This document shows, one piece after another, positions 227 through 22,496 of a DNA stretch of 64,000 bases. The position numbers and the translations under genes were made by a program. This stretch comes from an uncultured Bacteroidales bacterium (lineage in GTDB: Bacteria > Bacteroidota > Bacteroidia > Bacteroidales > VadinHA17): assembly GCA_942492865.1 (NCBI GenBank), contig OW818650.1, positions 23,892 to 87,891 of the forward strand, written 5' to 3'. Within the stretch, counting starts at the first letter, position 1. Each line of letters starts with the position of its first letter. The notes below the pieces were generated by a model that was not told the origin of the DNA, ran no database searches, and was given only the letters and a program-made list of their open reading frames with translations.

Positions 227-619
227 TAACGGCCCGGCAATAAAATTAGTAAACGTTACCCGACGCACCGACGGCCGGTGAGCACTGCACACTACTATGA
301 AGAAAATGTATCGAGGCCGGAGAAGGAGGGTACGGCGCGTGTTTTTGCAATCCAGGCAGAGAATTTAATTGAGTATTACGAGTGTCGCGGTACAAGATGT
401 GATGCGCGCCATATGTTGTCCACGGTTACAGCGTGGTCTAGGTGCACTGGTGCAGTGTCGCGGTACAAAGTTGATGCGCGCCAGTTGTTGTCCACGGTTA
501 CTGAGGTTTCTATGGGGCAGAGGCGGGAATCCGGGTTTATCACCAGCCAGTAGTTGTCCAACGTGCAGAGAATCAAAGCAAAAACCGTGACGAGTTTATT
601 AATTTTATTGTCCGTGTTA
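227..619 (+). repeat. Cassette-boundary element E1, type A (393 bp), giant attC-like structured repeat
   Basis: Starts cc-TAACGGCCCGGCAATAAAATTAGTAAACG and ends CGAGTTTATTAATTTTATTGTCCGTGTTA. Nearly identical to the copies at 7387, 10797, 12778 and 17622. Confidence 0.9.
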
Positions 620-640
620 TAAGCAGAGCTGTTTAGAAAT

Positions 641-1414
641 TTATCTATGGTTACTCTTATTTTTTAAGTCTGGATTGAAGTTTATCCCAATTCCCATGTT
701 CATCTTAGCATAAGGAATCACATTGTCACTATTACTGAGCTTAATAAGCCCTGTGAGTCCAAATTTATAGATGAATTTGACTTTTTCTTTCCCTGAGCGG
801 AAAAACCAGACTGGTTCTATCAAAATACTATTTTGAGTATTTCGCGGAAATGGTCCATTTTCAGAGGTATACTCATAATAATTATGATCTGTTAAACTTG
901 AGTGAAAGTATCCGGCTTTAATTGCAACACCATAATCCATTTGTCCGGGGCTAACTGCAATTCTGCCAAAATTCAATTGAGTAAAATATAATTGATAGTC
1001 ACCGTATAATCTCCTTATATAGCGAAGTGGATAATTGGACAGCCTATTTACCCAAGTGTTGCCGTATCCGTTACCAAAACCGGCGTACAATTCAAGGACA
1101 TTTCTATCTCTAAATTTTTTGTAAAATCCTGGAGCTATTTGAAAATAGTATCTGTTTTCAAGACCTATTGATCCAGATGTCTGAATGGCAATCTTATTAG
1201 TGAGTCCATAGGATATTGTCGCTTGAGCTGAAGGAAGAAGGCATATTCCTGCGTCAATTCGTAAATCATTTTTTTCATTTATTAATGGTATATCCACTAT
1301 CTGGGTATTATAGATAACACAACCAGGAACCAGTAAGAAGCTCAAAACGCAAATCAGAATTCGTATATAAATTACTAGAACTCTCATCTTGTATTGGAAT
1401 TTTTCTATGAACAA
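641..1414 (-). CDS. Hypothetical beta-rich lipoprotein/outer-membrane protein (cassette cargo)
   Basis: 257-aa ORF with an N-terminal hydrophobic segment ending LLVPGC (lipobox-like) and a Gly/Tyr-rich alternating pattern. The stop lies 21 nt from the E1 right end. Confidence 0.6.
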   Translation of the reverse strand: MFIEKFQYKMRVLVIYIRILICVLSFLLVPGCVIYNTQIVDIPLINEKNDLRIDAGICLLPSAQATISYGLTNKIAIQTSGSIGLENRYYFQIAPGFYKKFRDRNVLELYAGFGNGYGNTWVNRLSNYPLRYIRRLYGDYQLYFTQLNFGRIAVSPGQMDYGVAIKAGYFHSSLTDHNYYEYTSENGPFPRNTQNSILIEPVWFFRSGKEKVKFIYKFGLTGLIKLSNSDNVIPYAKMNMGIGINFNPDLKNKSNHR

Positions 1415-1443
1415 TTTAATACGGGCAGAATGCGCTTTGCTTA

Positions 1444-1841
1444 TAACGGCCCGGCGGTATAATTAGTAAACGTTGCGGAGTCGACTGGAGGCCGCGGCAG
1501 AATGTTTTTCGCTTGGAATTCGCATGTTTCAAAGGCCGTATAGGAGCGTAGCACGGCGCGTGTTTTTGCTGTCAGGCAGTATTTTAATTGAGGGTAATGA
1601 GTAGTCGCGGTACAAAGGCCGGATGCGTGCCAGTTGTTATCACCGGTTACAAAGTGATCTTGGTGCAGTGGTGCAGTGTCGCGGTACAAAGCTGAACCCG
1701 CGCCGGTTGTTATCCCCGGTTACTGACTTTCCTTTTGGGCAGTGGCGGGAGTCAGGGTTTATCAGCGTGCCAGTTGTTATCCAAGGTGCAGAAAAGCCCG
1801 CAAAAACCGTGACGAGTTTATTAATTATACCGTCCGTGTTA
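1444..1841 (+). repeat. Cassette-boundary element E2, type B (398 bp)
   Basis: TAACGGCCCGGCGGTATAATTAGTAAACG ... CGAGTTTATTAATTATACCGTCCGTGTTA. The terminal helix carries compensatory changes relative to type A. Same type as 3121-3514. Confidence 0.9.
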
Positions 1842-2224
1842 GGTTTTCGGCCTTGTTATTATTCCCCAGATTGAAGATTATCCAGGAAGAGAATGAAAAA
1901 AAGAACTTCTCCCCTTGCAGTATTTGTCCAGGTGTGATATGCTTTCGCCGGGTCAGTTACATTAGAACTATCCGGGTATAATGGCAATATCTCAGGCTTG
2001 TGTTTATGATTTCCTTTTCTCTCCTTGAGATGTATTGCTTACTTAAAGCTAAGAAATTATCCTGAGATTGAAATTTGAGATTATTCAATAGAGATATTTA
2101 ATCTATGGTTACAAGTATCTGTTTTTCTGCTTGTAAGAACTTATTCCACGTGGCCGCCGTTAGGTTTTCGGCCTGTTTTTTTTGTTCAGTGGCAGAATCT
2201 TTCCGGACGACTCAGGCTGAAACC

Positions 2225-2553
2225 TAACGGCCCGGCGGTATAATTGAGTAAACGGTGCTGCGCTACTGGAGGCCGGACAGATCAACCTCTCTCCTATCCT
2301 ACAATTTCTATGAGGCCGTAAGGAGCGAAGCACGGCGCGGTTTTTGCCGCCGTACTCTGCACTTTATTTGAGGTAGCGAGCTGATGCGGTACAATTAGGA
2401 TTGACGCGCCAGTTTTTTTCCCCAGTTACTGATAGCCGGTTATGTGCACTGGTGGGAACAAAGTGGCGTTATTCGCAATATCGGTTGTTTCTTTTGGTGC
2501 AGTAAGGAATTGCAAAAACCGTGACGAGTTTATTAATTATACCGTCCGTGTTA
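2225..2553 (+). repeat. Cassette-boundary element E3, type C (329 bp)
   Basis: Ends match type B (CGGTATAATT / AATTATACCG) but the interior is shorter and divergent. Near-identical to 4541-4868. Confidence 0.9.
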
Positions 2554-2565
2554 GCCTTAGTGTGT

Positions 2566-2874
2566 TTACAAAAGTCTCTTTAATGCAGTCTGTCTTAGCT
2601 TTTTAGCAGAATGATGGACTGTAAGAATGTGAACTATTTGAGTACTTGAAATTTTGTAGATTATCCTGTAATTTCCAAAGATTATCTCTCTGATTTTGTC
2701 TTTCCTGCTTTCCGGAACCATTCTCCCTATTCGGGGATTGATCTCAATATATTTTGTTACGTCAATAATCCGCTCAATTGTCAGAGATGCATATTTTACT
2801 GAATCTTTGGATATGTATTCAGCAATTGATTTTAAGTCAGTCAGTGATCGCTTAGTCCAGATTATTTTAACCAT
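2566..2874 (-). CDS. RelE/ParE-family type II toxin
   Basis: 102-aa ORF (MVKIIWTKRSLTDLKSIAEYI...GNYRIIYKI...ILTVHHSAKK), the typical ParE/RelE length and motif pattern. Overlaps the upstream antitoxin ORF by 13 nt. Confidence 0.8.
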   Translation of the reverse strand: MVKIIWTKRSLTDLKSIAEYISKDSVKYASLTIERIIDVTKYIEINPRIGRMVPESRKDKIREIIFGNYRIIYKISSTQIVHILTVHHSAKKLRQTALKRLL

Positions 2875-3044
2875 TTTTTGAGTTCTTGCTTAACCTGGGC
2901 AGTAGTGTATGTTTTCCCTTCCTCAATGTCCTTAAGCCCTTCCTCAATCTTATTTAATACAACCAATTCTTCAACAATCTGGTCAACTGTGAAATTATCC
3001 GGTAAACTGTCCAAGGTTTTCTTTACTTTATCTTTCGTTAACAT
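2862..3044 (-). CDS. Antitoxin partner of the RelE/ParE toxin
   Basis: 60-aa product from the internal ATG (MLTKDKVKKTLDSLPDNFTVDQIVEEL...). Small, acidic and overlapping the toxin start. The ORF-track start at 3110 would lie 10 nt from E4 and seems less likely. Confidence 0.65.
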   Translation of the reverse strand: MLTKDKVKKTLDSLPDNFTVDQIVEELVVLNKIEEGLKDIEEGKTYTTAQVKQELKKWLK

Positions 3045-3120
3045 AATTAACTCCGTTTCTGCAAATATATAAAAAAACAGTATGTTTTCCCGGTTAAATA
3101 GGGGCAGCATCCATTAAGGC

Positions 3121-3514
3121 TAACGGCCCGGCGGTATAATTAGTAAACGTTGCGGAGTCGACTGGAGGCCGCACCCGAGATGTTTTCGCTTGGAATTCGG
3201 ATGTTTCAAAGGCCGTATAGGAGCGTAGCACGGCGCGTGTTTTTGCTGTCAGGCAGTATTTTGATTGAGGGTACTGTGTAGTCGCGGTACAAAGCCGGAT
3301 GCGCGCCAGTTGTTATCCCCGGTTACAAAGTGATCTTGATGCAGTGGTGCAGTGTCGCGGTACAAGGCCAAACCCGCGCCGGTTGTTATCCACGGTTACT
3401 GACTTTTCTTTCGGGTAGAGGCGGGAGTCCGGGTTTATCAGCAACTACTTGTTTATCAAGGTGCAGGACCCCGCAAAAACCGTGACGAGTTTATTAATTA
3501 TACCGTCCGTGTTA
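3121..3514 (+). repeat. Cassette-boundary element E4, type B (394 bp)
   Basis: Same termini and interior as E2. Confidence 0.9.
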
Positions 3515-3525
3515 GCTTTAGGTAT

Positions 3526-4044
3526 TTAGTTTTTCTTGATTGTAACATGCTTATATTGAGCAACTACTCGCTGTAGCTCAATCAAATTTGGTTGATCAGG
3601 AATATAAAATTCGAATTTTCGTGTAGCAATGTCTGTCTGAATGGAAATGAAATTATTTATTCCGCTTCTATAACTTATGTCATATAATCCATGAGGAGTA
3701 GTTGATTTGTTGATCCCTTCATACCCGCGCAATCCAAGTTGTATGCTCTTAATGTCTTCAATTTTAATTATTTCTTTTCTCTGCATTAGTTCAACTTCAA
3801 TATGTTCTTTTGAAAATGAAATACTGCCAATAATACTTTTAAACTTAAATGAATAGCTCAAAATGAACAGACTTGTTATAAATGAAATGGCAACAATACC
3901 AATTAATATTGTTTTTATCGAATCATTCATTGAGTCAGGAATTAACCCAATAATGACCAAAAGTATTATACCAAACATTACTCCAAAAATGGCAAGATTC
4001 TTAATTGGTCTTCTCTTTTTGTCTATAAGTTCAAAGGTAAGCAT
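3526..4044 (-). CDS. Hypothetical membrane protein (cassette cargo)
   Basis: 172-aa ORF with two clear hydrophobic helices near the N-terminus. The stop lies 11 nt from the E4 right end. Confidence 0.6.
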   Translation of the reverse strand: MLTFELIDKKRRPIKNLAIFGVMFGIILLVIIGLIPDSMNDSIKTILIGIVAISFITSLFILSYSFKFKSIIGSISFSKEHIEVELMQRKEIIKIEDIKSIQLGLRGYEGINKSTTPHGLYDISYRSGINNFISIQTDIATRKFEFYIPDQPNLIELQRVVAQYKHVTIKKN

Positions 4045-4096
4045 AGTATATTAAATGGCACCGACTTAAAGCTAACTCGCTTTTAGCTTTATTTTA

Positions 4097-4465
4097 TTAT
4101 TTATTACTTTTAATAAAAGTACCTGAATTATCCCCAAATCCAAATGTTGGATACATGTTACTTAGAGTCACCAAATTATGTTCAGCTTCTATTCTATGTT
4201 CGGTCTCCCCTGGAAAATCTGGTAGTCGAACATATAGTATGTTTGCATCAATTCTATACAAGTACTCTTCGTTAACAATGTAACCTCTTCTAATAAAATG
4301 TGAAGAGTCAACAAATTCTAGAGTATCTCGATCATCTGGAGTTATCCATTGACCAATCCTATATTCATCATTATAGAAATTAGGACTGTCCCCATTTCTT
4401 TTATTACAAGAATTCGCAAAAATTAATAGGGAAAAGCATAATAAGAATTTTAAAATCGTTTTCAT
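4097..4465 (-). CDS. Hypothetical lipoprotein (cassette cargo)
   Basis: 122-aa ORF with a signal peptide ending LIFANSC (lipobox). Confidence 0.6.
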   Translation of the reverse strand: MKTILKFLLCFSLLIFANSCNKRNGDSPNFYNDEYRIGQWITPDDRDTLEFVDSSHFIRRGYIVNEEYLYRIDANILYVRLPDFPGETEHRIEAEHNLVTLSNMYPTFGFGDNSGTFIKSNK

Positions 4466-4540
4466 AGAGATGGATAATATGTTATAGATTCACAAAATAA
4501 AAGGGATAGATCTTTATATCGAGCAGGATGTACTTAAAGC

Positions 4541-4868
4541 TAACGGCCCGGCGGTATAATTTAGTAAACGTTGCTGAGCTACGGAAGGCCGGACAGAACA
4601 ACCTCTCTCCTATCCTACAATCTCTGTGAGGCCGTAAGGAGCGAAGCACGGCGCGGTTTTTGCCGCCGTACTCTGCATTAAATTTGAGGTAGTGAGCTGA
4701 TGCGGTACAATTATGATTGACGTGCCAGTTTTTTTCCCCAGTTACTGAAAGCAGGTTATGAGCACTGGAGGGAACAAAGTGGCTTTAATCGCAGTATCGG
4801 TATTTTCTTTTGGTGCAGTAGGATAAGCAAAAACCGTGACGAGTTTATTAATTATACCGTCCGTGTTA
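4541..4868 (+). repeat. Cassette-boundary element E5, type C (328 bp)
   Basis: Near-identical to E3. Confidence 0.9.
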
Positions 4869-5011
4869 GTGTGCCGTGCCATTTTGAAACTTGGAGCTTA
4901 TACAATGTTGTTTAAAAAACGTGAATTATTGTTTAGGCAGAAATAAAAGTCCCGGTTTAAGGCAGAAAATAATTATCGTTGTATTGGCCTTTGCATCAAG
5001 CGCATGGCCAC

Positions 5012-5283
5012 TAACGGCTCGGTGGTTGCGGTAGTAAGCGTTGGTGGCGCCGTCCGCCGTTGCGTGTCCCGGTACTTTAGGTCGGATTAGTCCCGGCGGG
5101 CAAGCCACCATGGCGCAATTTTTGCCAGTCCCGGCGAACGATAAAGTTGTCACGATAAACGGATTTGTCCAGAGCCGGAAGAAACGGAATTGGTAGATAA
5201 GTGAAAAGTTATTCGTCACGAAAAAATTGTCAAGGTAGTGAGCAAAAATTGTGACAAGCTTATTACCTCAACCATCCGGGTTA
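5012..5283 (+). repeat. Cassette-boundary element E6, type D (272 bp)
   Basis: TAACGGCTCGGTGGTTGCGGTAGTAAGC ... GCTTATTACCTCAACCATCCGGGTTA. Same architecture: terminal helix plus an inner CAATTTTTGC/GCAAAAATTG helix. Interior differs, with TTGTCAC-type motifs. Confidence 0.75.
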
Positions 5284-5512
5284 TGGTTAGTTCTAAAATT
5301 AAAACTGTCAAGATATTACGAATTTGTCATGGTAAAGAAATTTGTCTTGGTTCCAAATCCCGGTGAAAGAGCAGGAGTGGTCCAGTTTTACGAATTTGTC
5401 ACAAGTATGAATCCCTGTGGCAATGGTCCCGGTCCCGGATATACGGCGGGAATTGTCAAATATTGGATTTTACCCATAATGTCATAGATAACAAATGGAT
5501 GTTTTTTGGTCA

Positions 5513-6118
5513 TTATAGTTTAAAATTTATCCCAGTGGATACAATGATAAACTTACTATTAACATTTTCTGTTAGATAATATGTAAATCCAGGTTGTATG
5601 AAGATGCTGATGTCTTGATTTATTGAATAAACTAAATCTATTTTTGTATTTACCCCCAAGCCAAAAAAGTTATAATTGTCTTTATGTTGCAAATCAAGAA
5701 GATCGTTCGAAACAAGGTATCTATTAAATTCATAGTGGCTGGTAAAATAGGAGGGGAGTAGACTGCCCCCAATTCTTATTTCAAATCTGTCATTAATTAT
5801 TGGATATGATAATCCAAGATTAAGGACATAAACTGATTCTTTGAAAACTTCTTCTGTTCGATATGTAGCAGGTGTAATCTGATTATAATAGTCATGCGAA
5901 TGATGGGAGTATTCAAGACCTGCCGTAAGAATATACTTTTTTGAGAAATGCTTTGAAATGGAACTTCCAAATCCAATTGGGTAATGCTGTTTCGCTAGAT
6001 CAAATTTGTATCCATATTTATAGAACACGGAGATACTTATGTCATCTTGGGCAACGATCCTGTTTGCTAGAAGTAATGCACACAGAAATAAGAGAAATTT
6101 TTGTAGAATAGTTTTCAT
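5513..6118 (-). CDS. Outer-membrane beta-barrel-like hypothetical protein
   Basis: 201-aa ORF with a signal peptide (LLANRIVAQ) and an alternating aromatic/Gly beta-strand pattern. Confidence 0.55.
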   Translation of the reverse strand: MKTILQKFLLFLCALLLANRIVAQDDISISVFYKYGYKFDLAKQHYPIGFGSSISKHFSKKYILTAGLEYSHHSHDYYNQITPATYRTEEVFKESVYVLNLGLSYPIINDRFEIRIGGSLLPSYFTSHYEFNRYLVSNDLLDLQHKDNYNFFGLGVNTKIDLVYSINQDISIFIQPGFTYYLTENVNSKFIIVSTGINFKL

Positions 6119-6301
6119 TATGCTGTGATTTGATGTTAATCATTCTATTTTGTCGATAAAATGGTTGCTAACATTCTATTAATGGCAATAGTCAAAGTTA
6201 CAAAACATTTTGAATCCCGATTGTAGATTTAGATTCTCAAAATATTGCAAGTCCAGCAGACGTATTCCAATAGACTCGACATTGAGGAAATTTGTTATGC
6301 T

Positions 6302-6934
6302 TTAAAATTTATAAATTGCTCCAATTGTGATTGCATTCAAAGAAACAATGTTGCTTAGTCCAGCCCCAAAGTTAAAATTTGATCTTTTATCTGTAAAATC
6401 ATCTTCTTTGGATGTGCTATGACTATAACCAACACTTAATATATTGAGTGATGTTTCTATAGATAATTTCTCTGAAATATCATATGCCAATCCCGGGAAA
6501 ATACTTAAATACGTACTTGTTGTTTTAGGACCATCATTTATGGTTCCTCCTCTTTTAACACTTGATTTTGAGAATTCTAATCCAATATTTCCCTGACCAT
6601 AGATTGAGAACTTATTCCATTTAACTGCGTAATATCGCAAAAAAGGACTTACCCCGATACCGGAAGATTTGGATATGGTTTCATTATTACCATCTGTTTT
6701 GTTATAAGAAAGAGAATAATCTAATGCCAACCCTATAGCCAGCTTTTCAGATAGAAATTTGCCGACATTTGGCCTAAGGTTAAGATTATAACCAAACGAT
6801 TTTTGAGCAGGCATTCCCTGGAGATTATTGTTAGAGGTATTAAAACCAGCATTTCCTCCCACAAATACCTGAGCACTAGTATTGATGAAAACAAAAGAGC
6901 AAATAGCGATCAAAAAAACTTTACAGGATTTCAT
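6302..6934 (-). CDS. Outer-membrane beta-barrel (porin-family-like) protein
   Basis: 210-aa ORF with a signal peptide (FINTSAQ), beta-strand periodicity and a C-terminal ...GAIYKF typical of OMP barrels. Confidence 0.6.
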   Translation of the reverse strand: MKSCKVFLIAICSFVFINTSAQVFVGGNAGFNTSNNNLQGMPAQKSFGYNLNLRPNVGKFLSEKLAIGLALDYSLSYNKTDGNNETISKSSGIGVSPFLRYYAVKWNKFSIYGQGNIGLEFSKSSVKRGGTINDGPKTTSTYLSIFPGLAYDISEKLSIETSLNILSVGYSHSTSKEDDFTDKRSNFNFGAGLSNIVSLNAITIGAIYKF

Positions 6935-7127
6935 AAATATTATTTTTTGAATTATGCCTACTCTTTGGTTTTTCGGCCTCCACCAGTTGGTAATAAATAA
7001 GTTTTAGTGTTAATTACTTCACAGCAAAAATCAAACCAATCTTTTTTCTTAGGAATACCATAAAATCGACCTAAAGAACGTGCAGGAATAAGCTAGATAT
7101 AAGATATTTGTAATAGTTAACATCCCG

Positions 7128-7336
7128 GTAGATTAGCAGGTTTTGACTCTCTGTGAGAAATTTGTCACGTTAATAATCCCGGCAGATGGGCAGAAGTAGT
7201 CCAGATTTACGAATTTGTCACGGTTACCAATCCCGGCAAAAGGGCAGGAGTAGTCCAGTTTTACGAATTCGTCACAAGTTACCAATCCCGGTGGCGAAGC
7301 AGGATTTGTCACTATTTATGAACCTTGCTTGAGTTA
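7128..7336 (+). repeat. Degenerate type-D element (E6b) built from about 54-bp iterated units
   Basis: Begins gTTAACATCCCGG and ends GAGTTA followed by the same flank as E6 (TGGTTAGTTCT). The interior holds 3-4 units of AATCCCGG-N-GTAGTCCAG-TTTACGAATTTGTCAC. Confidence 0.5.
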
Positions 7337-7386
7337 TGGTTAGTTCTGAAAGAATTGGCAACTATCACGAAACTAAAGAATTAACC

Positions 7387-7781
7387 ATAACGGCCCGGCA
7401 ATAAAATTAGTAAACGTTACCCGACGCACCGACGGCCGGTGAGCACTACAGCCTACTATGAAGAAAATGTATCGAGGCCGGAGAAGGAGGGTACGGCGCG
7501 TGTTTTTGCTGTCCATGTAGAGAATTTAATTGAGTATTACGAGTGTCGCGGTACAAGATGTGATGCGCGCCATATGTTGTCCCCGGTTACAGAGGTGATC
7601 TAGGTGCACTGGTGCAGTGTCGCGGTACAATGCCAAATCGGCGCCAGTTGTTGTCCCCGGTTACTGACGTTTCTACGGGCAGGGCGGGAATCCGGGTTTA
7701 CCACCATACCAGTTGTTGTCCAACGTGCAGAGAATCAATGCAAAAACCGTGACGAGTTTATTAATTTTATTGTCCGTGTTA
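7387..7781 (+). repeat. Cassette-boundary element E7, type A (395 bp)
   Basis: Same termini and interior as E1. Confidence 0.9.
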
Positions 7782-7792
7782 GCAACAGGCTT

Positions 7793-8833: not shown

Positions 8834-8844
8834 AATCCTAAGAG

Positions 8845-9789: not shown

Positions 9790-9806
9790 TATATTATGTT
9801 TTACAA

Positions 9807-10685: not shown

Positions 10686-10796
10686 TTATAAAATGTTATG
10701 TCTTATATTGGCTGTTAATAACACAAATGTAAACAATATAATTAGTATAAATGTAAGGGTCATTAGATATTTGCATCGTCGGTGAGTGCTTGTTGC

Positions 10797-11189
10797 TAAC
10801 GGCCCGGCAATAAAATTAGTAAACGTTACCCGACGCCACGACGGCCGGACAAGACAATGCCTACTAAGAAGAAAATGATTTGAGGCCGGAGAAGAAGGGT
10901 ACGGCGCGTGTTTTTGCTGTCCAGGCAGAGAATTTAATTGAGTATTACGAGTGTCGCGGTACAAAATGTGATGCGCGCCATATGTTGTCCCCGGTTACAG
11001 AGTGATCTAGGTGCACTGGTGCAGTGTCGCGGTACAAAGTTGATGCGCGCCAGTTGTTGTCCCCGGTTACTGAGGTTTCTTTCGGGCAGAGGCGGGAATC
11101 CGGGTTTATCACCATGCCATATGTTGTCCAACGAGCAGAGAATCAGAGCAAAAACCGTGACGAGTTTATTAATTTTATTGTCCGTGTTA
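10797..11189 (+). repeat. Cassette-boundary element E8, type A (393 bp)
   Basis: Same termini and interior as E1. Confidence 0.9.
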
Positions 11190-11218
11190 GGTGGTCGTAG
11201 TATTGTACTTTTTATTAT

Positions 11219-12715: not shown

Positions 12716-12777
12716 TGAATGCTTTTTTATGTTTGAATTGTCCAGAATTTGTCTTTGGGGGCACTTACTATGCCACC

Positions 12778-13169
12778 TAACGGCCCGGCAATAAAATTAG
12801 TAAACGTTACCCGACGCCCGGAGGCCGGTGAGCACTGCACCCTACTATGAAGAAAATGTATCGAGGCCGGAGAAGGAGGGTACGGCGCGTGTTTTTGCAG
12901 TCCAGGCAGAGAATTTAATTGAGTATTACGAGTGTCGCGGTACAAAATGTGATGCGCGCCATATGTTGTCCCCGGTTACAGAGTGATCTAGGTGCATAGG
13001 TGCAGTGTCGCGGTACAAGGCTGATGCGCGCCGGTTGTTGTCCACGGTTACTGATGTTTCTACGGGCAGAGGCGGGAATCCGGGTTTATCACCACGCCAG
13101 TTGTTGTCCAACGAGCAGAGAATCAATGCAAAAACCGTGACGAGTTTATTAATTTTATTGTCCGTGTTA
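12778..13169 (+). repeat. Cassette-boundary element E9, type A (392 bp)
   Basis: Same termini and interior as E1. Used as the exemplar for the fold analysis. Confidence 0.9.
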
Positions 13170-13208
13170 GGTGTTCGTGGTATTGTATTTGATTATATAT
13201 AAGCATTA

Positions 13209-13685
13209 TTAAAATCTATAAGAAATAGTTAATCCTGTACATAAAGGACCATTATTGTTAATGAAAACTGGTCTAAAACTAATTGAGTTATTATATTTAT
13301 TGTGCTCAATCATTACCTTTTTTATATTATGAGATCGGCTAATACCTATATTACACGCGATAACTCCGCCTCCAATTAGGCCGTAGCCAAGGATTTTATA
13401 AATACCTTTCATCACGCGGCTGCCCAGAATTTCTTCACCAAAAGTAGCATCCTCAGGCAATCCATTTTTATAGGTAGTATTGGCAACCAGGATTGATAAA
13501 CATCCTAAACCTATACTACAACCACCAGCAATGGTGACTTTCTTATAATCTTGGAAAGATATGGTGAGCTGTTCATTCGTGAGATCTCTGATATCATTGA
13601 CACCATATTGTTTTGTGTACCACTGACTTTTTAACGAGCAATTCAGTAATAATAAAATTAGTTGAGCACATAAAAGGCGTTTCAT
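13209..13685 (-). CDS. Hypothetical secreted/membrane protein (cassette cargo)
   Basis: 158-aa ORF with a signal peptide and Gly-rich hydrophobic segments. Confidence 0.5.
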   Translation of the reverse strand: MKRLLCAQLILLLLNCSLKSQWYTKQYGVNDIRDLTNEQLTISFQDYKKVTIAGGCSIGLGCLSILVANTTYKNGLPEDATFGEEILGSRVMKGIYKILGYGLIGGGVIACNIGISRSHNIKKVMIEHNKYNNSISFRPVFINNNGPLCTGLTISYRF

Positions 13686-13840
13686 CTTTTAAGTATTAGA
13701 AAGGAGTAAAAGTAAATTGTTGAATCTTTCGAGAATGCGAAGTTTGAAGGCTGCTCAGTATGTTTGTAAGAAGGTATGTCCAATACTTGTCATAAGTTTC
13801 TAAACGAACAAAAATATTTTAAAATCCAAATGATTATCGC

Positions 13841-15727
13841 ATCGAGTAGGTAAAGGGGAGTTTCACCCCTAAACCTCTCACGGAACCGTACGTGATACTC
13901 TCGCATCATACGGCTCTTGTTATACAAAAAAAGTCAAGCGGTTTCGAAGCCATGCTGCCAGTGTACAAATAAATCGGGTTGCCGTTTAGCAAGATCCCGA
14001 ATCCATCGACCAGCTTTCTTATGACTACCATTAAACCGTTTATACCGTTTAACCACCCACATGTTCAACCTGCGATGAAAGACACTGAATATCCACTGTA
14101 ACTCGTGTTTCCTGTATTTCCCAAAGTGATCAATCCAGCTCTTAATCTTCGGGTTGAAGAAAGCAGCTATGTGGTATATATCCCTGTTGGTCCAATTGTG
14201 AAAATTTGAGTCACGTATCTCGTCAATGATCCTCTTCTCGTTCTTCTTGCTAATCGCACAATCAAATCCTAAGAACATTCTGCCCTCTTCTTTATTCATT
14301 GCCGGTCTTGGCTGAAAGCTGAATCCCAGAAAATCAAACTGCACTGTATTATAGTCGGCATTGCGCCGTGCTTTCTTACAGTATACAATTTTCGTCTTCT
14401 TTTCATTCAGTTGCAGCTTGCATTCGACCATTCTCTCCCTTATGGCTTTTAGAACTTCCTCTGCTTCCTGCTGCGTATTACAGTGAACAATTATGTCATC
14501 TGCATAGCGTACAAATCGAAGCTTCGGGTATGTCTTTCCAAGCCATTTGTCAAAAGCATAATGAAGGAATAGGTTCGCAAGCAGAGGACTAATTACTCCT
14601 CCCTGCGGTGTGCCCTCTCCCATCCTGTATCTCTTGCCACCTTTTCTATCTTCTATCGCGGCTTCAAGCCACCTCACGAGATACATCTTTACCCATTTCT
14701 CCTCAACATGCCTTTCAACTGCCTTCATGAGCAGCTCGTGTGACATCTTGTCGAAGAAACTTGATATGTCCATGTCGACAACCCACTCGAACTCCCGCAC
14801 ATTTCTACGAACCTGTGCGATTGCCTGATGAGTACTTCTAAGTGGTCGATATCCGTAAGAGCTTTCCACAAATATAGCTTCAAAGCGGGCTTCAAGGTAA
14901 TCTTTGATGACCTGCTGCGCTATCCGGTCTCTTACTATGGGTATTCCAAGCTTACGCTTTCTCCCATCATCCTTAGGAATTTCTACTTCGAGAACTGAAG
15001 TTGGTCGGTAGCTGCCTGAACTCAGGCGGTTCCAGATCACATAGAGATTGTTAGATAATTTCTCTTCAAACTTCTCCAGAGTCTCCCCATCTATCCCGGC
15101 TGCTCCCTTGTTCTTCTTTACTCTCTTGTAGGCGGCGACTACCATTTCCTGGGTAATCGGTATGCTTTTCGTCTCCGTTGTCCTACTCCTACCCCGGTTA
15201 TCCAAGGGTGGTAGAGGCAATTTCAACTGTATAACCTCAGCCCTTCGCTCCGCTCCCATTACAGGAGTTTCATCACTACTACGACTGAGTCTGTCCTCAT
15301 ACAAGTCATCAGTATTCGGCCTCCCGGGTTGTCCTCCTGGTTGTGCCTTTCCTTTACCATCCTTGTATGAGTTCCCCTGTTCCATAACTAAGCCTGAATA
15401 GAAATCATGCCCCCTTTATGCCGTCTGCCATGCAGCCAGTAAGCAGGTGCCCGCTGCACTTTGGTCCCCCAGCAGCCATAAACCGGTGGTTTTGACAGAT
15501 TGTCGTTCTCTCGACACTTCATCGAAGGTTCATTTTCATTCATCTTTCCTATTCTTACCTGATCCTTTTGGCAGGACCTTTTCCCCTTACCGTTTAGTAC
15601 CTCGCCGTTGCCAGTTCAGCACCGAGGGGCGGTTTCCGGGTACGCCTGTACGTCCCCGTGAGAGGCCATACTCTCATCTTAATTACAGCATCAGATCCCG
15701 TTGGTACGAGGTCTGTTCAGGGCACAC
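13841..15727 (-). mobile_element. Group II intron, copy 1 (intact, 1887 bp)
   Basis: On the minus strand the 5' end reads GTGTGCCCTGAAC (GUGYG). A 34-nt domain V, GAGCCGTATGATGCGAGAGTATCACGTACGGTTC, is the reverse complement of 13883-13916 and shows the AGC triad, a 2-nt bulge and a GAGA tetraloop. A domain VI-like hairpin follows and the intron ends ...CTACTCGAT. Encodes an RT/maturase. Confidence 0.9.
13934..15385 (-). CDS. Group II intron reverse transcriptase/maturase (no endonuclease domain evident)
   Basis: 483 aa with RT motifs (AAGIDG, RKLGIPIVRDRIAQ, FVRYADDIIVHC) and a C-terminal maturase-like region. Confidence 0.9.
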   Translation of the reverse strand: MEQGNSYKDGKGKAQPGGQPGRPNTDDLYEDRLSRSSDETPVMGAERRAEVIQLKLPLPPLDNRGRSRTTETKSIPITQEMVVAAYKRVKKNKGAAGIDGETLEKFEEKLSNNLYVIWNRLSSGSYRPTSVLEVEIPKDDGRKRKLGIPIVRDRIAQQVIKDYLEARFEAIFVESSYGYRPLRSTHQAIAQVRRNVREFEWVVDMDISSFFDKMSHELLMKAVERHVEEKWVKMYLVRWLEAAIEDRKGGKRYRMGEGTPQGGVISPLLANLFLHYAFDKWLGKTYPKLRFVRYADDIIVHCNTQQEAEEVLKAIRERMVECKLQLNEKKTKIVYCKKARRNADYNTVQFDFLGFSFQPRPAMNKEEGRMFLGFDCAISKKNEKRIIDEIRDSNFHNWTNRDIYHIAAFFNPKIKSWIDHFGKYRKHELQWIFSVFHRRLNMWVVKRYKRFNGSHKKAGRWIRDLAKRQPDLFVHWQHGFETA

Positions 15728-17613
15728 ATCGAGTAGGTAAAGGGGAGTTTCACCCCTAAACCTCTCACGGAACCGTACGTGATACTCTCGCATCATACGG
15801 CTCTTGTTATACAAAAAAAGTCAAGCGGTTTCGAAGCCATGCTGCCAGTGTACAAATAAATCGGGTTGCCGTTTAGCAAGATCCCGAATCCATCGACCAG
15901 CTTTCTTATGACTACCATTAAACCGTTTATACCGTTTAACCACCCACATGTTCAACCTGCGATGAAAGACACTGAATATCCACTGTAACTCGTGTTTCCT
16001 GTATTTCCCAAAGTGATCAATCCAGCTCTTAATCTTCGGGTTGAAGAAAGCAGCTATGTGGTATATATCCCTGTTGGTCCAATTGTGAAAATTTGAGTCA
16101 CGTATCTCGTCAATGATCCTCTTCTCGTTCTTCTTGCTAATCGCACAATCAAATCCTAAGAACATTCTGCCCTCTTCTTTATTCATTGCCGGTCTTGGCT
16201 GAAAGCTGAATCCCAGAAAATCAAACTGCACTGTATTATAGTCGGCATTGCGCCGTGCTTTCTTACAGTATACAATTTTCGTCTTCTTTTCATTCAGTTG
16301 CAGCTTGCATTCGACCATTCTCTCCCTTATGGCTTTTAGAACTTCCTCTGCTTCCTGCTGCGTATTACAGTGAACAATTATGTCATCTGCATAGCGTACA
16401 AATCGAAGCTTCGGGTATGTCTTTCCAAGCCATTTGTCAAAAGCATAATGAAGGAATAGGTTCGCAAGCAGAGGACTAATTACTCCTCCTGCGGTGTGCC
16501 CTCTCCCATCCTGTATCTCTTGCCACCTTTTCTATCTTCTATCGCGGCTTCAAGCCACCTCACGAGATACATCTTTACCCATTTCTCCTCAACATGCCTT
16601 TCAACTGCCTTCATGAGCAGCTCGTGTGACATCTTGTCGAAGAAACTTGATATGTCCATGTCGACAACCCACTCGAACTCCCGCACATTTCTACGAACCT
16701 GTGCGATTGCCTGATGAGTACTTCTAAGTGGTCGATATCCGTAAGAGCTTTCCACAAATATAGCTTCAAAGCGGGCTTCAAGGTAATCTTTGATGACCTG
16801 CTGCGCTATCCGGTCTCTTACTATGGGTATTCCAAGCTTACGCTTTCTCCCATCATCCTTAGGAATTTCTACTTCGAGAACTGAAGTTGGTCGGTAGCTG
16901 CCTGAACTCAGGCGGTTCCAGATCACATAGAGATTGTTAGATAATTTCTCTTCAAACTTCTCCAGAGTCTCCCCATCTATCCCGGCTGCTCCCTTGTTCT
17001 TCTTTACTCTCTTGTAGGCGGCGACTACCATTTCCTGGGTAATCGGTATGCTTTTCGTCTCCGTTGTCCTACTCCTACCCCGGTTATCCAAGGGTGGTAG
17101 AGGCAATTTCAACTGTATAACCTCAGCCCTTCGCTCCGCTCCCATTACAGGAGTTTCATCACTACTACGACTGAGTCTGTCCTCATACAAGTCATCAGTA
17201 TTCGGCCTCCCGGGTTGTCCTCCTGGTTGTGCCTTTCCTTTACCATCCTTGTATGAGTTCCCCTGTTCCATAACTAAGCCTGAATAGAAATCATGCCCCC
17301 TTTATGCCGTCTGCCATGCAGCCAGTAAGCAGGTGCCCGCTGCACTTTGGTCCCCCAGCAGCCATAAACCGGTGGTTTTGACAGATTGTCGTTCTCTCGA
17401 CACTTCATCGAAGGTTCATTTTCATTCATCTTTCCTATTCTTACCTGATCCTTTTGGCAGGACCTTTTCCCCTTACCGTTTAGTACCTCGCCGTTGCCAG
17501 TTCAGCACCGAGGGGCGGTTTCCGGGTACGCCTGTACGTCCCCGTGAGAGGCCATACTCTCATCTTAATTACAGCATCAGATCCCGTTGGTACGAGGTCT
17601 GTTCAGGGCACAC
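15728..17613 (-). mobile_element. Group II intron, copy 2 (1886 bp, head-to-tail with copy 1)
   Basis: By eye identical to copy 1 except for one missing C in the run at about 16488-16490. Its 5' end lies 8 nt from the TAAC of E10. Confidence 0.85.
15821..17271 (-). pseudogene. Frameshifted group II intron RT/maturase
   Basis: A 1-nt deletion (ctccctgc becomes ctcctgc) splits the ORF into 16480-17271 and 15821-16318, which otherwise translate identically to copy 1. Confidence 0.85.
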
Positions 17614-17621
17614 ATGACACC

Positions 17622-18013
17622 TAACGGCCCGGCAATAAAATTAGTAAACGTTACCCGACGCCCGGAGGCCGGGGAGCACTACACACTACTATGAAGAGAA
17701 TGTATCGAGGCCGGAGAAGGAGGGTACGGCGCGTGTTTTTGCAGTCCAGGCAGAGAATTTAATTGAGTATTAAGAGTGTCGCGGTACAAGATGTGATGCG
17801 CGCCATATGTTGTCCCCGGTTACAGTGTAATCTAGGTGCACTGGTGCAGTGTCGCGGTACAAAGTTGATGCGCGCAGGTTGTTGTCCACGGTTACTGTGG
17901 TTTCTAAGGGCAGAGGCGGGAATCCGGGTTTATCACCAAGCCAGTTGTTGTCCAACGTGCAGAGAATCAATGCAAAAACCGTGACGAGTTTATTAATTTT
18001 ATTGTCCGTGTTA
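17622..18013 (+). repeat. Cassette-boundary element E10, type A (392 bp)
   Basis: Same termini and interior as E1. Confidence 0.9.
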
Positions 18014-18087
18014 GCATTTCGGGGCCAATTTTAAATCATGTCCTTGGCAAATAAATATTTCTGTGTTTGAGTCTGATTTTGCAACCT

Positions 18088-18813
18088 TTAATTAAATATT
18101 CGGTGCTTACCTAACATGTCATTAATATTCTCTATATGCTGAGTTTGTATTGCTTTACTATTGCCATTATACATAGCTTCTTTCAATACTTTAACTACTT
18201 CATATTTGTCAGTATAAGGAGCTAATTCCTTTTTGCTTAAGATGATATCCAAAGCTTCTAAAACTCTTGCTGATTTGACAATAAATGTACCATCTGGAAC
18301 GAAATTGATATCTTTCAATACACAATCTCCATAGAACACTACTATTGAATAGAAAGCGATATTTTCAAATTGCCTAAGTTTTTTTCTTATTTCAGCTATA
18401 TGCCTATTGTTTTGCATGATTGGATTATAAAAACGATATTTTTCCTTTCCATAAGCCAATACTTGGGTCCATTCTCTATATTTCCCATTTCCAAAGATCC
18501 ACCCACTGTAGTCTTTTACTTCAAATACAATTATCCCTGTTTTTGCAGCTACTACTAAATCAATCTGTGAAAATTCACCATCAGACTTTTCTATATACAG
18601 GTCATGAAAAATCGCCTGTGCTGGTATTCCATGTTTTAAAAATTTTAATACTAAATCTTTTTCCGTTCTCGTGCCTCTATTTGATTTAGTGACAGTTTCT
18701 AATAGTTTTTTGTCGCGTATCTTTCTAAAAATAGCATAGAAACACAGACAGATGAATATGATAAGAGGAATCCATTTTATATAAGGCAAATATGATTTAA
18801 AGTCTCCTTCCAT
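18088..18813 (-). CDS. NERD (nuclease-related domain) protein with N-terminal TM helix
   Basis: 241 aa. TEKDLVLKFL...HDLYIEKSDGEFSQIDLVVAAKTGIIVFEVKDYSGWIFG fits the NERD pattern. Confidence 0.7.
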   Translation of the reverse strand: MEGDFKSYLPYIKWIPLIIFICLCFYAIFRKIRDKKLLETVTKSNRGTRTEKDLVLKFLKHGIPAQAIFHDLYIEKSDGEFSQIDLVVAAKTGIIVFEVKDYSGWIFGNGKYREWTQVLAYGKEKYRFYNPIMQNNRHIAEIRKKLRQFENIAFYSIVVFYGDCVLKDINFVPDGTFIVKSARVLEALDIILSKKELAPYTDKYEVVKVLKEAMYNGNSKAIQTQHIENINDMLGKHRIFN

Positions 18814-18965
18814 CTACTAATTATTTTCAATCGGGCTGCTCAAACTAGTGAATTTTGATGATTTTCTGATGCTTTGTCTTTCGCAATCTTATCCTATCCG
18901 TCCTGTCGTGCGTAGGGAGTATCCCGATAAAAAATTAGTATTGTTAGGATTTCGTGCATGTTAAA

Positions 18966-19475
18966 TTAGGATGATGTTGTTTTAAAACTAGGTAGATTAG
19001 GTATTTCTGCTTTATTTAAAAATTCTATGGTTAACTCATATTTGATTTTAGTAAACAACCAGTCATGGTAATTTATAATTAGATCGTTCCATCTTGTAAA
19101 CTTTATATTGTCAGGCAGAAAAACATTATGAGAATTATTTAACTTCTCAATGTTGGCTTTATCGGTTGTAATTATTATAGGCAGATTAATAGTGAATAGA
19201 CTAGTAAATAATCCATTTTTCTTTGGACATATTATTATTAAGTTTTCTTTATAGTACATGTCAGCTTTAACAGGGAAACCAAGACCTTCTCGAATTGCTA
19301 AGCTGTCACTGGTTTGGGAATACCTAATAGAGGAATGTTGAAGTTGCTCTGAGGGAAATTTTTTCAATATACTTTTACTTAGGTGTTGTTGTACTAGAGT
19401 CATGATAAGGAAATATGTTGAAAAAGCGATAGCGACAGCTAGGAAGAAAAACAATGCGATTGTATCAGAATTCAT
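18966..19475 (-). CDS. Hypothetical membrane-anchored protein
   Basis: 169-aa ORF with one N-terminal TM helix. No motif recognised. Confidence 0.45.
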   Translation of the reverse strand: MNSDTIALFFFLAVAIAFSTYFLIMTLVQQHLSKSILKKFPSEQLQHSSIRYSQTSDSLAIREGLGFPVKADMYYKENLIIICPKKNGLFTSLFTINLPIIITTDKANIEKLNNSHNVFLPDNIKFTRWNDLIINYHDWLFTKIKYELTIEFLNKAEIPNLPSFKTTSS

Positions 19476-20056
19476 AATTTTCTTTTTACTATTGAAATGA
19501 AGTTTTGCACAGCGGCATAGATGCTAACTTGTTTTTAATTGTGCATTAGCCAAAGTCATAACAGAACTATCTTGTGTAGTCGCAAAAGCCAATGCCAGGT
19601 TACCAATTATATTTGGTTTTTGATGCATTTCGGGGCCATTTTAAAAACGATCACTTGATCCTTTCAAGGTCTTGTCGCAGTGAGGGAATATAGGCGATCA
19701 CTAGTTACCCCTGAGTGTAGTTATGAAAATCAAATATATAAATTTTAAGTCCCATATCCCCTATCAGTATCTTGTCGTGAGTTGGGATATCCTGATAGAA
19801 AGCAGTATTGTTATTAAAATAACAGAAGTTTTCTAAAGACGGCGCGAGGGCAAACTATCGAGCGATGGCAAATCCCGATACAAGAGATGAAGTTGTCATA
19901 TTACACAAAATTTTCATAAAACGGAGCGACGGCAAATCCTTGTTATCAAGCGATATATGGATTTTCTGTTAGCATTTCGGGGCCTCAATTATTGACACGC
20001 GTTTTTCACCATAGATAATTTGTCAATGTATCTGGGCGCACCAGGGCCCTGAATGC

Positions 20057-20455
20057 TAACGGCCCGGCAATAAAAGTCGTTTGCAGTGCGTAGTCGACCG
20101 GAGGCCGCCAGCAGAATTTCAAGGGTTTGTTAAAGCATAAATCTACTAAAGGCCGTAGGGAGCGAAGCATGGCGCAATTTTTGCCATCACGGCACAATTT
20201 TGCTTGGTGCTGGCGCGATCGCGGTACAAGTTTTCGGGCGACTGAGATTGAGTCATGGTTCTAAGTATGGTCGAAGACGTTTGCGCAGTTTCGCGGTACA
20301 ATACTTGGTCGGAGCCACAATCTGTCACGGTACAGAAGTTTAGTAGAGGGCAGATGAGCGTATCACGGCATAAGAGTTTGGGCAGAAACTAATCTTGTAA
20401 GCAGGAATAAAACGCAAAAATTGTGACAAGCAAATGACTTTTATTGTCCGTGTTA
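20057..20455 (+). repeat. Cassette-boundary element E11, type E (399 bp)
   Basis: TAACGGCCCGGCAATAAAAGTCGTTTGC ... GCAAATGACTTTTATTGTCCGTGTTA. The terminal helix is re-coded with compensatory changes. The inner CAATTTTTGC/GCAAAAATTG helix and TCGCGGTACAA motifs are retained. Confidence 0.85.
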
Positions 20456-20470
20456 TAAACCGTTGTTTTT

Positions 20471-20902: not shown

Positions 20903-20922
20903 GTCATGATAACTATTCTTTG

Positions 20923-21627: not shown

Positions 21628-21683
21628 TGTCTTAATCTAATCTTCTAATCAAATCTTAGAGTCTAGTCGTGTGCAATGGTTTA

Positions 21684-21704: not shown

Positions 21705-21741
21705 TATTTTTGAATATTCTAAAATGGTAGTTAATCCCATA

Positions 21742-22447: not shown

Positions 22448-22496
22448 GGTTTAAGATTATTGGATGATGAAGTGATACTTCATAAATGAGGACCGG

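Follow-up and report, generated by a model that had tools for sequence, protein, structure and literature searches.

The closest described systems are sedentary chromosomal integrons, such as the superintegron of Vibrio cholerae with its VCR sites. They share with the locus described here a tyrosine recombinase at one end, an attI or attI-like site at which the first cassette differs between strains, and tens of co-oriented cassettes, mostly with 1-3 ORFs and each followed by an imperfectly palindromic site. Further shared features are a crossover (here predicted) at G|TT of a GTTRRRY-like core, a cassette start that complements R'' of its own site, unpaired features on one strand only, antisense to the ORFs, toxin-antitoxin and defence-like cassettes, site-targeting group II introns, and duplication of cassettes within the array. 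The classical attC site has a length of 57-141 nt and carries its extrahelical bases internally, between the R and L boxes. Group IIC-attC introns insert within attC, antisense to the cassettes. Xer recombinases are also known to act on folded single-stranded DNA, as XerCD does on CTX-phi attP at dif1 and in other Xer-exploiting integrative elements; strand specificity comes from mismatches, and with elements of the CTX-phi type an entire phage or island enters dif by means of the host XerCD. The archaeal and bacterial dimer resolvases XerA, XerC and XerD have about 300 aa, work at one dif site only and show no linkage to cassette arrays. According to IntegronFinder surveys, integrons are almost absent from Bacteroidetes. 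The I2 insertion of the integron integrase IntI is regarded as key to single-strand recombination (PMC7790495).

We analysed a stretch of 64,000 nt from an uncultured Bacteroidales bacterium (the window). We consider it very likely that an integron-like cassette array of the sedentary type has one of its ends in the window, and that the paired flanks described below are, in all probability, the ends of mobile gene cassettes of an integron-like gene-capture system of Bacteroidales. No earlier description of such a system was found in the literature, and we regard it as a novel form of the integron principle. It differs from sedentary integrons in its host phylum, Bacteroidota, and in its recombinase, which is encoded in the same direction as the cassettes, has no IntI-specific insertion (I2 helix) and carries one or two extra N-terminal domains. 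The sites are also different, with 272-399 nt in this lineage and conserved internal direct modules of 72 nt. Complementarity of the arms extends 13-17 nt past the core into cassette-specific sequence, and the strand is marked by a G:T wobble, obligate at position 11, and by an optional T bulge, both outside the core. The eleven elements in the window, which behave as giant attC-like sites, and one minimal site are the following.

227-619, plus strand: E1, giant attC-like site TAAC...GTTA; nhmmer score 401; the better-folding 'bottom' strand is the plus strand
1444-1841, plus strand: E2, subtype B
2225-2553, plus strand: E3, short subtype, without one internal module of about 72 nt
3121-3514, plus strand: E4, subtype B
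4541-4868, plus strand: E5, short subtype
5012-5283, plus strand: E6, divergent; only the ends and the right half align with the family (model positions 153-392)
7388-7781, plus strand: E7
10797-11189, plus strand: E8
12778-13169, plus strand: E9, inner terminal stem of 17 bp, 72-nt internal direct modules
17622-18013, plus strand: E10
20057-20455, plus strand: E11, divergent; terminal-stem pairing kept by compensatory changes
21674-21705, plus strand: minimal hairpin site of 32 nt without the 390-nt element; same G:T mismatch kept

An earlier note had proposed that the right flank of each element is the reverse complement of the left flank of the next one. When each right flank of the eleven elements was compared with the reverse complement of each left flank, adjacent pairs scored 5-9 (mean 7.3), while the mean was 1.2 for the two flanks of one element, which indeed do not match, and 1.4 (maximum 6) for non-adjacent pairs. 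In 100,000 permutations, the observed sum for adjacent flanks was never attained. All ten proposed pairs were recovered, with the flank sequences correctly given, including the five cases with an extra T, and an eleventh pair was found beyond the range covered before (GTTATAAACCgTTG at 20452 and CAAtGGTTTATAAC at 21674-21687). The only early mismatch in all ten pairs is, as had been claimed, a G of the right flank opposite a T of the left flank, thus G versus A when the left flank is reverse-complemented, and it always occurs at position 11 (numbering starts with the G of GTTA and skips the extra T). Two details had to be corrected. The spacing of 0.05-3.5 kb is wrong in its upper bound, as E9 and E10 are 4.46 kb apart, a distance enlarged by two group II introns, and the flank assigned to 'E6(b)' at 7333 duplicates the right flank of E6 itself, which lies at 5280.

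The rule is not restricted to the window. It holds in 122 further non-redundant adjacent pairs from about 70 other Bacteroidales/Bacteroidota genomes, and 89% of these pairs score at least 5 (random-pair mean 1.3). At position 11, 103 of 106 pairs have G/A; an extra base, where present, is located in the right flank and is a T in 19 of 21 cases, and for only one pair is an extra base in the left flank the better explanation. When the regions downstream of 80 recombinase homologues were searched in an unbiased manner, 25 arm pairs emerged, 24 with A/G and none with a Watson-Crick pair at position 11. Arrays beside shorter relatives of the recombinase, with sites of 45-125 nt, follow the same G/A rule (24 of 25).

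The strand asymmetry is real. The hairpin of the plus strand is the more stable one in 117 of the 122 flank pairs and in 112 of 129 terminal stems of the elements. This strand is antisense to the cassette ORFs, as is the bottom strand in integrons, and its better folding fits bottom-strand selection. The G:T wobble and the bulged T are present solely on this strand, while the coding strand has C:A mismatches. The terminal stem of the element shows compensatory changes between subtypes, with G:U pairs on the plus strand only, which we count in favour of the integron-like reading. The suggested resemblance to the extrahelical bases of attC thus applies to the asymmetry but not to the position, since wobble and bulge are situated beyond the conserved GTTA/TAAC core, towards the cassette as seen from the crossover, and not between R and L boxes.

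Between the elements, the cassettes are arranged as follows.

616-1447, minus strand: cassette body 1, bounded by the arms GTTATAAGCAgAGC and GCTtTGCTTATAAC; 257-aa ORF; belongs to E1 (left)
1838-2228, minus strand: cassette body 2, no long ORF; arm GTTAGGTTTTCGGCC has a second copy at 2159
2550-3124, minus strand: cassette body 3, ParE toxin and 82-aa partner
3511-4544, minus strand: cassette body 4, ORFs of 172 and 122 aa
4865-5015, minus strand: cassette body 5, 151 nt, no ORF
5280-7391, minus strand: cassette body 6, ORFs of 201 and 210 aa; second arm copy at 7333
7778-10800, minus strand: cassette body 7, three ORFs (RES-domain protein of 346 aa; 314 aa; 292 aa)
11186-12781, minus strand: cassette body 8, 498-aa protein with thioredoxin-like domain
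13166-17625, minus strand: cassette body 9, 158-aa ORF and two tandem group II introns
13841-15727, minus strand: group II intron copy 2, intact reverse transcriptase/maturase of 483 aa
15728-17613, minus strand: group II intron copy 1, frameshifted reverse transcriptase
18010-20060, minus strand: cassette body 10, NERD-domain protein of 241 aa and 169-aa ORF; second arm copy at 19968
20452-21687, minus strand: cassette body 11, DUF3795 and YARHG proteins; arms GTTATAAACCgTTG and CAAtGGTTTATAAC
21688-22390, minus strand: first cassette, adjoining attI; 182-aa ORF; a different cassette is found here in a related strain
22391-22425, minus strand: attI-like site, coding strand GTAATTTTTATGCATCTATAAACAAG|, predicted crossover at 22389/22390
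24829-26388, minus strand: tyrosine recombinase of 519 aa, N-terminal domains at aa 1-70 and 130-200, then an Xer/XerA-like core-binding and catalytic region

The cassette content (ParE, RES, NERD, small unknown proteins) is similar to that of sedentary integrons. Cassettes homologous to body 3 occur in other arrays, and the 292-aa ORF of body 7 hits a PADLOC candidate model. Body 6 has short tandem repeats at 5295-5470 and 7121-7332. Arms are duplicated in four cassettes, which the cassette model does not predict and which we count against it.

Intron copy 1 is inserted 12 nt past the G of GTTA, with the 5' exon GTTAGGTGTCAT, and one group II intron lineage occupies five independent sites, each 12-13 nt past this G. 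This resembles the group IIC-attC introns, where a single lineage also inserts repeatedly and site-specifically at cassette recombination sites; here, however, the intron has the same direction as the cassette ORFs and is located at the outer end of the arm.

The extent of the cassette unit became evident from strain comparisons and from a duplication. Contigs from a related strain (L118, L119, L120) are 96% identical to the window across the recombinase platform, but homology stops at position 22385, directly after ...CTATAAACAAG|TTATA, and continues there with a different first cassette, the arms of which obey the flank rule. In another array, one cassette is present in duplicate, and the copies show 100% identity that starts at G|TTA, spans the ORF and the complete element downstream of it, and ends at the next G|TT. 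The attI-like motif (C/A)TATAAAC(A/G)AG|TTA was found downstream of the recombinase in about 30 loci, at about 90 nt where adjacent and at 2.4 kb in the window. In every array with a visible end (L088, L099, L111 and the window), the same end carries the gene of a recombinase of one family, always in one orientation. The attI polymorphism, the cassette duplication and the recombinase at the array end support the earlier proposal of integron-type cassettes that recombine at G/TTA.

Residues 230-500 of the recombinase find their best sequence and structure matches among XerA, XerC and XerD (4a8e at E = 2e-43); the family differs from these resolvases in its N-terminal extensions and in the conserved attI-like motif downstream. 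With NF040815 it scores 220.5 bits (cut-off 220). Both N-terminal domains have a beta-beta-alpha-beta-beta-alpha-beta order and are possibly HARP-like, a similarity that is weak (Foldseek E = 0.1, Pfam E = 0.016-0.13). In the related-strain contigs the recombinase gene is broken into two ORFs, which counts against our reading, as does the missing I2 insertion. The linkage suggests that this Xer-like enzyme catalyses the recombination. As presumed for Xer enzymes on folded DNA, an Xer-family catalytic domain may act on a hairpin of one strand, but in the form of a dedicated recombinase with extra domains that serves a many-cassette array at its own attI-like site.

It must be considered that only double-stranded sites are used and no strand is folded. 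The arms would then be inverted protein-binding repeats, and G/A at position 11 would mark the left versus the right end. An Xer-like enzyme without the I2 insertion speaks for this, cassette boundaries and attI polymorphism fit a double-strand crossover at GTTA equally well, and position 11, invariant in each arm (A or C on the coding strand) and never Watson-Crick, is readable as sequence. However, apart from GTTA and position 11 the arms vary, and yet they are complementary in more than 140 different cassettes. Unrelated arm sequences cannot be recognised by a protein but can be recognised by pairing, and in duplex DNA there is no cause for arms 0.05-4.5 kb apart to co-vary. In addition, every mismatch, in the flanks and in the element stem, is of the G:T type on one strand. 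We thus regard a purely double-stranded mechanism as unlikely.

Considerably less probable is an ordinary IntI-dependent integron with unusually long attC sites, even though the GTTA/TAAC core agrees with GTTRRRY/RYYYAAC, the attI-like CTATAAACAAG|TTA is similar to CTAAAACAAAG|TTA of attI1, and relatives are named 'site-specific tyrosine recombinase/integron integrase' by the NCBI annotation pipeline. The recombinase reaches only 200 bits with the integron-integrase model TIGR02249 (cut-off 265), and residues 182-248 of VchIntIA are matched by a stretch of only about 24 residues (query 406-429), so that this IntI segment of about 67 residues is largely absent. Class 1 integron cassettes have an arm complementarity of only 7-12 nt and no fixed mismatch at position 11, and the near-absence of integrons from Bacteroidetes also argues against a canonical array. 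Of the integron analogy drawn before, cassettes and asymmetry hold, but not the canonical form, as the IntI insertion is missing and the sites are 3-5 times as long as classical attC.

The elements are G+C-rich islands with conserved ends within an A+T-rich array, and pairs compatible with G:U are confined to one strand. This would also be compatible with genes for structured non-coding RNAs, such as guide or bridge RNAs of an RNA-guided mobile element, with flanks that pair as RNA. We consider this very improbable: Rfam gave no match for the elements even at E = 5, whole elements fold no better than shuffled sequences (z = -1.3 and -0.9), arrays with the short sites obey the same rule, and the linked enzyme is a tyrosine recombinase with no RNA-guided nuclease or transposase nearby. 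That the element interior (about 300 bases) is thermodynamically ordinary (z = -1.3) is also counted against the integron-like reading.

Mobile repeats of the MITE or IS type, inserted into palindromic targets so that the flanks are target hairpin halves or target-site duplications, would account for repeated, uniformly oriented elements with terminal inverted repeats, but this is scarcely credible, as flank scoring refutes the target-site interpretation (between the flanks of an element there is neither complementarity nor direct repetition), every copy belongs to the one array by the recombinase, with no further copy in the 64 kb, and the duplicated unit is cassette plus element.

For the integron-like system that we favour, sequence comparison suggests the following course of recombination. 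On the coding strand (minus strand of the window), the recombinase gene and two resident genes precede the attI-like site ...CTATAAACAAG|TTA and the cassettes, each consisting of TTA-arm(N6-A-N3) ... ORF(s) ... arm'(N3-C-N6)-TAAC-(270-400-nt element)-G. With crossover at G|TTA, the arm after each element would be part of the next cassette, which would explain why its complement is the arm before the following element rather than the flank on the other side of its own element. In the excised circle, both arms of a cassette would come to flank its own element, and arms, TAAC/GTTA core and the inner stem of about 20 bp could form one long imperfect hairpin. The position-11 wobble and the bulged T may favour folding and recognition of the 'bottom' strand and would thus fix the orientation of insertion, like the unpaired features of attC. 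The additional N-terminal domains, which may be HARP-like and bind branched DNA, could stand in for the I2 insertion of IntI, and the internal 72-nt modules may have a role as well. Unlike in the excised circle, the outer stem of 14 bp cannot form around the element in the array, and this was counted against the model.

We thus propose an integron-like capture of genes that would operate with giant sites and a non-IntI recombinase, in a phylum thought to be nearly without integrons.

The eleven elements (E1-E11), all on the plus strand between 227 and 20455, are defined by their conserved ends, TAACGGCCCGG... and ...CCGTGTTA. The 30 nt outside each element end were extracted, and all right flanks were scored for their match to all reverse-complemented left flanks. 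Adjacent flanks score 5-9 (mean 7.3), as compared to means of 1.2 for the two flanks of the same element and 1.4 for non-adjacent flanks, and the observed sum was reached in 0 of 100,000 permutations of the pairings. The complementarity between adjacent elements, as described in the earlier note, is thus certain, and the flank sequences quoted there are all correct; the largest spacing had to be corrected from 3.5 kb to 4.46 kb. An eleventh complementary pair (20452 with 21674-21687) lies outside the range of that note. In every pair from the window, the sole early mismatch is a G in the right flank opposite an A in the reverse-complemented left flank. It sits at position 11, counted from the G of GTTA, if the extra T that occurs in five of the pairs is set aside. 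The two flanks of a single element do not match, as they would in a direct target-site duplication.

Homologous arrays were collected by an exact-pattern scan for the conserved right end of the element, using one genome per species. This yielded at least 113 blocks from at least about 70 assemblies, almost all of them metagenome-assembled genomes of Bacteroidales/Bacteroidota, and some of the arrays span at least 80 kb. A profile search retrieved 333 element copies among the matches listed, 129 of which are full length. In these other genomes, 89% of 122 non-redundant adjacent pairs score at least 5, as compared to a mean of 1.3 for random pairs. The mismatch keeps its position relative to GTTA, with G/A at position 11 in 103 of 106 pairs, and the extra base is located in the right flank and is a T in 19 of 21 cases.

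The mismatch is not equivalent on the two strands, being a G:T wobble on the plus strand and a C:A mismatch at the identical position on the coding strand. According to DNA energy parameters, the more stable hairpin is that of the plus strand for 117 of 122 arm pairs, and the same holds for 112 of the 129 terminal stems of the elements. This terminal stem of about 20-23 bp retains its pairing across subtypes via compensatory changes, and all of its non-Watson-Crick pairs are of the G:U type on the plus strand. All cassette ORFs in the window are on the minus strand, so that the plus strand is antisense to them, just like the bottom strand of attC, the recombinogenic one, in integrons. We infer that the sites fold as single strands, with the plus strand probably the active one. 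The hypothesis of a wobble that never varies and always lies equally far from the crossover is simple and open to mutational test, and it bears on how a tyrosine recombinase chooses strand and orientation.

A cross-species comparison could not tell which element travels with a cassette, being confounded by homologous cassette bodies that occur between unrelated elements. The question was settled by a cassette that is duplicated within one array, with copies (L082 and L092, blocks from another genome) about 16 kb apart on one contig. Identity of 100% sets in ~15 nt before the end of the upstream element and spans G|TTATGGGCAATTG..., a body of 847 nt and the downstream element in full length, ending at ...CCGGGCCG|TT; past this point the copies diverge at once. 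The upstream elements differ by scattered mismatches and a 31-nt gap (81% identity by global alignment). Because the identity is bounded by G|TTA and G|TT, the cassette unit includes the downstream element. The mobile unit is thus TTA-arm...ORF...arm'-TAAC-element-G, with crossover placed at G|TTA, and an element belongs with the ORFs to its right (window coordinates). The duplication thus has the composition of an integron cassette, with ORF(s) and a downstream attC, bounded by G|TT. Arrays start as attI-G|TTA-arm and there is no element ahead of the first cassette. At the end of the duplicated cassette in L092, the following cassette starts with GTTG instead of GTTA; GTTR is thus accepted as a core, which agrees with the integron consensus GTTRRRY.

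On its right side, the array is followed by a beta-lactamase-family gene, a 152-aa ORF and then the recombinase gene:
24829-26388, minus strand, tyrosine recombinase gene, adjoining tRNA-Pro

Downstream of this gene, the coding strand carries the attI-like motif CTATAAACAAG|TTA, which resembles the crossover region of attI1, CTAAAACAAAG|TTA. Close variants occur in four loci from other genomes (L099, L111, L001, L004), and the conserved form (C/A)TATAAAC(A/G)AG|TTA follows the recombinase gene in about 30 further loci as well as in the window. Short-read contigs from a closely related strain (L118-L120) share 96-99.8% identity with the window across the platform, and homology stops at window position 22385, immediately beyond ...CTATAAACAAG|TTATA. 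Beyond this breakpoint, the related strain has a different cassette, coding for a 149-aa ORF with arms GTTATAGTGCaTAGG and CAAACgCACTATAAC, which is followed by an element. An integron attI is located by the integrase gene and is where cassettes enter; the two strains diverge exactly at the motif and differ in their first cassette. From this polymorphism, the motif is likely to work as attI. No 390-nt element was found in L001 and L004, which code for recombinase homologues. L004 has the attI-like site and one plausible arm pair, and no further cassettes could be made out there. In L001, downstream of the recombinase homologue and attI-like site, about 2 kb (11800-13900) are extremely G+C-rich and of low complexity, unlike the rest of the contig, which may be due to an assembly chimera.

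Taken as a whole, we regard cassette recombination as a well supported and highly probable reading of the array. The cassettes of the window code for a ParE toxin with a small partner, a three-gene RES-domain set, a thioredoxin-like protein, a NERD nuclease-domain protein, DUF3795 and YARHG proteins, and several small proteins of unknown function. An exact-protein lookup with the ParE cassette protein did not return any match. Directly upstream of cassette ORF 6302-6934, the Rfam motif DUF805b RNA is matched on the minus strand at 6955-6986 (37 bits, cut-off 35.6).

Four cassettes from the window have a duplicated arm of 14-17 nt, which the cassette model does not account for:
1838 and 2159, duplicated arm
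5280 and 7333, duplicated arm
18010 and 19968, duplicated arm
21674 and 22377, duplicated arm

The duplication leaves an ORF-less hairpin "mini-cassette" of 58-92 nt beside one element, while the ORF segment is located between identical arms. Directly left of duplicated arms, short tandem repeats (TACGAATTTGTCAC... and CGAGCGATGGCAAATCC...) occur at 5295-5470, 7121-7332 and ~19600-19967, and the repeat region at 7121 begins with TAACATCCCGG, which resembles an element's left end. These may be degenerate or alternative recombination sites. At 21674-21705, where an element is expected, there is only a bare 32-nt hairpin, CAAtGGTTTATAAC-TTGCTGA-TAAACCgTTAT, which keeps the G:T mismatch and could be a minimal or deleted site.

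The elements have the conserved TAAC/GTTA core, an inner stem of ~20 bp in which changes are compensatory, and a spacer that does not pair, being GGCC on one side and T on the other. The ~300 internal bases hold 72-nt direct modules, the core of which resembles the right terminus. The element interior has no unusual folding energy, as single elements fold no better than shuffled sequence, and there is no Rfam match to the elements, either at the gathering threshold or at E values up to 5. A MAFFT alignment of the 129 copies extends to 903 columns and is too noisy, with the consensus fold backing only the terminal stem. Regular-expression counts of the internal TTGTC..GGT motif were not informative as this motif is too variable.

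Cassette 9 contains two tandem copies of a group II intron (13841-17613, on the minus, coding strand), one with an intact and the other with a frameshifted reverse transcriptase. The insertion point of the first copy lies 12 nt beyond the G of GTTA. Relatives in arrays from other genomes (L081, L030, L114, L046) are inserted 12-13 nt after this G, giving five sites together with the window, and the same intron lineage occurs in at least nine other arrays. This suggests a lineage that is specialised on cassette recombination sites. As the introns are inserted independently and site-specifically, the outer end of the arm is indicated to be a structural landmark.

Full-length homologues of the recombinase with 55-67% sequence identity are abundant in Bacteroidales. 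The array end is covered for three other arrays (L088, L099, L111), and each of these has a family member at the end that corresponds to that of the window, with matching relative orientation. Residues 230-500 of the window recombinase match archaeal XerA (4a8e, E = 2e-43), and the protein scores 220.5 bits with the XerA-type model (cut-off 220). Residues 1-225 are predicted to form two copies of a beta-beta-alpha-beta-beta-alpha-beta domain (pLDDT above 90). The best fold match of this predicted model in PDB is the HARP domain of SMARCAL1 (probability 0.87-0.89, E = 0.11, TM 0.55-0.57), and matches to Pfam HARP stay under the cut-off of 25 bits (12-15 bits; E = 0.13 and 0.016), so that the likeness of the modelled domains to HARP is suggestive only.

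The platform may occupy a tRNA-linked hotspot: tRNA-Pro (GGG) at 26653-26727 is divergently oriented, ~265 nt from the start codon of the recombinase. The related strain has its recombinase gene broken into two ORFs (141 and 380 aa). The contigs of this strain (L118-L121, compared to window 22385-36792) are 99.8% identical upstream of a repeat protein, but the platform with tRNA, recombinase and beta-lactamase reaches only ~96%. The strain may have a mosaic history, or the gene may be a pseudogene. The repeat protein (27218-30313, minus strand, 1031 aa) has a type IX secretion sorting domain and seven repeats of the Flg_new_2 type. The corresponding 225-bp tandem repeats in the gene (27867-29052) are nearly identical, and this region is collapsed where the related strain was assembled from short reads.

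When metagenome contigs were scanned with the recombinase alignment, 80 loci were identified. The attI-like motif is present in about 30 of these, ~90 nt downstream of the gene where it is adjacent. Many of the recombinases have only 350-390 aa and a single N-terminal domain, and the cassettes of these relatives are separated by sites of 45-125 nt which are plain attC-like hairpins. In an arm-pair search without any constraint on position 11, an A at the cassette start is opposite a G at the reverse-complemented end in 24 of 25 pairs, and this position is Watson-Crick paired in none of the 25. As a control, class 1 integron cassettes have arm complementarity of 7-12 nt with no fixed mismatch. 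The 390-nt element occurs in only 2 of the 80 recombinase loci and, as the relatives have short sites, the giant elements are one sublineage of a wider system.

The system resembles a sedentary integron in its mode of working, but fails the defining integrase test. VchIntIA (2a3v) matches residues 230-500 in two pieces, and its IntI-specific region (residues 182-248) is represented by only ~24 residues of the recombinase in the alignment. The integron-integrase model TIGR02249 reaches 200.4 bits in two separate stretches, below the cut-off of 265. An integrase of the IntI clade carries an additional domain, the I2 helix, between its conserved patches; the recombinase lacks this insertion and does not qualify as one. 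A classical attC site is 57-141 nt long and forms an imperfect inverted repeat; it has the boxes R''/L''/L'/R', conserved AAC/GTT triplets, and extrahelical bases that lie between R and L boxes. The window elements, in contrast, have 272-399 nt, and wobble and bulge are located outside the core. A canonical integron was thus rejected, on integrase as well as on site features. Xer proteins for chromosome-dimer resolution have ~300 aa and act on a single dif site close to the replication terminus, without cassettes, while this recombinase has 519 aa with two extra domains, and several genomes have it linked to arrays that span at least 20-80 kb. An origin of the elements from MITEs or target duplication is rejected by the mismatch between the two flanks of one element.

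On balance, we lean towards a second, previously unrecognised integron lineage in Bacteroidota with widespread gene capture. Its Xer-like recombinase, lacking I2 but having one or two HARP-like structure-sensing domains, would act on folded single-stranded sites; an obligate G:T wobble 11 nt from the crossover would set the strand, and in one sublineage the sites would have grown to ~400 nt with accessory half-site arrays. No earlier description was found in the full-text literature, from which subscription journals are largely missing, so that a prior report may exist there. Surveys with IntegronFinder 2.0 report almost no integrons in Bacteroidetes.

An integron-type platform built on a different recombinase architecture is present in at least about 70 species-level genomes of Bacteroidales/Bacteroidota. 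Standard integron tools, which target IntI and attC sites of less than about 200 nt, are therefore expected to miss it. Environmental and anaerobic-digester Bacteroidales probably harbour a large uncatalogued reservoir of mobile cassettes, coding for secreted, defence-like and toxin-antitoxin proteins. PMC7790495 views the I2 helix of IntI as the innovation that enabled single-strand recombination. Comparison of this system with IntI integrons makes the origin of integrons and attC sites directly testable. If our reading is true, single-strand cassette recombination evolved, or persisted, independently of the IntI innovation.
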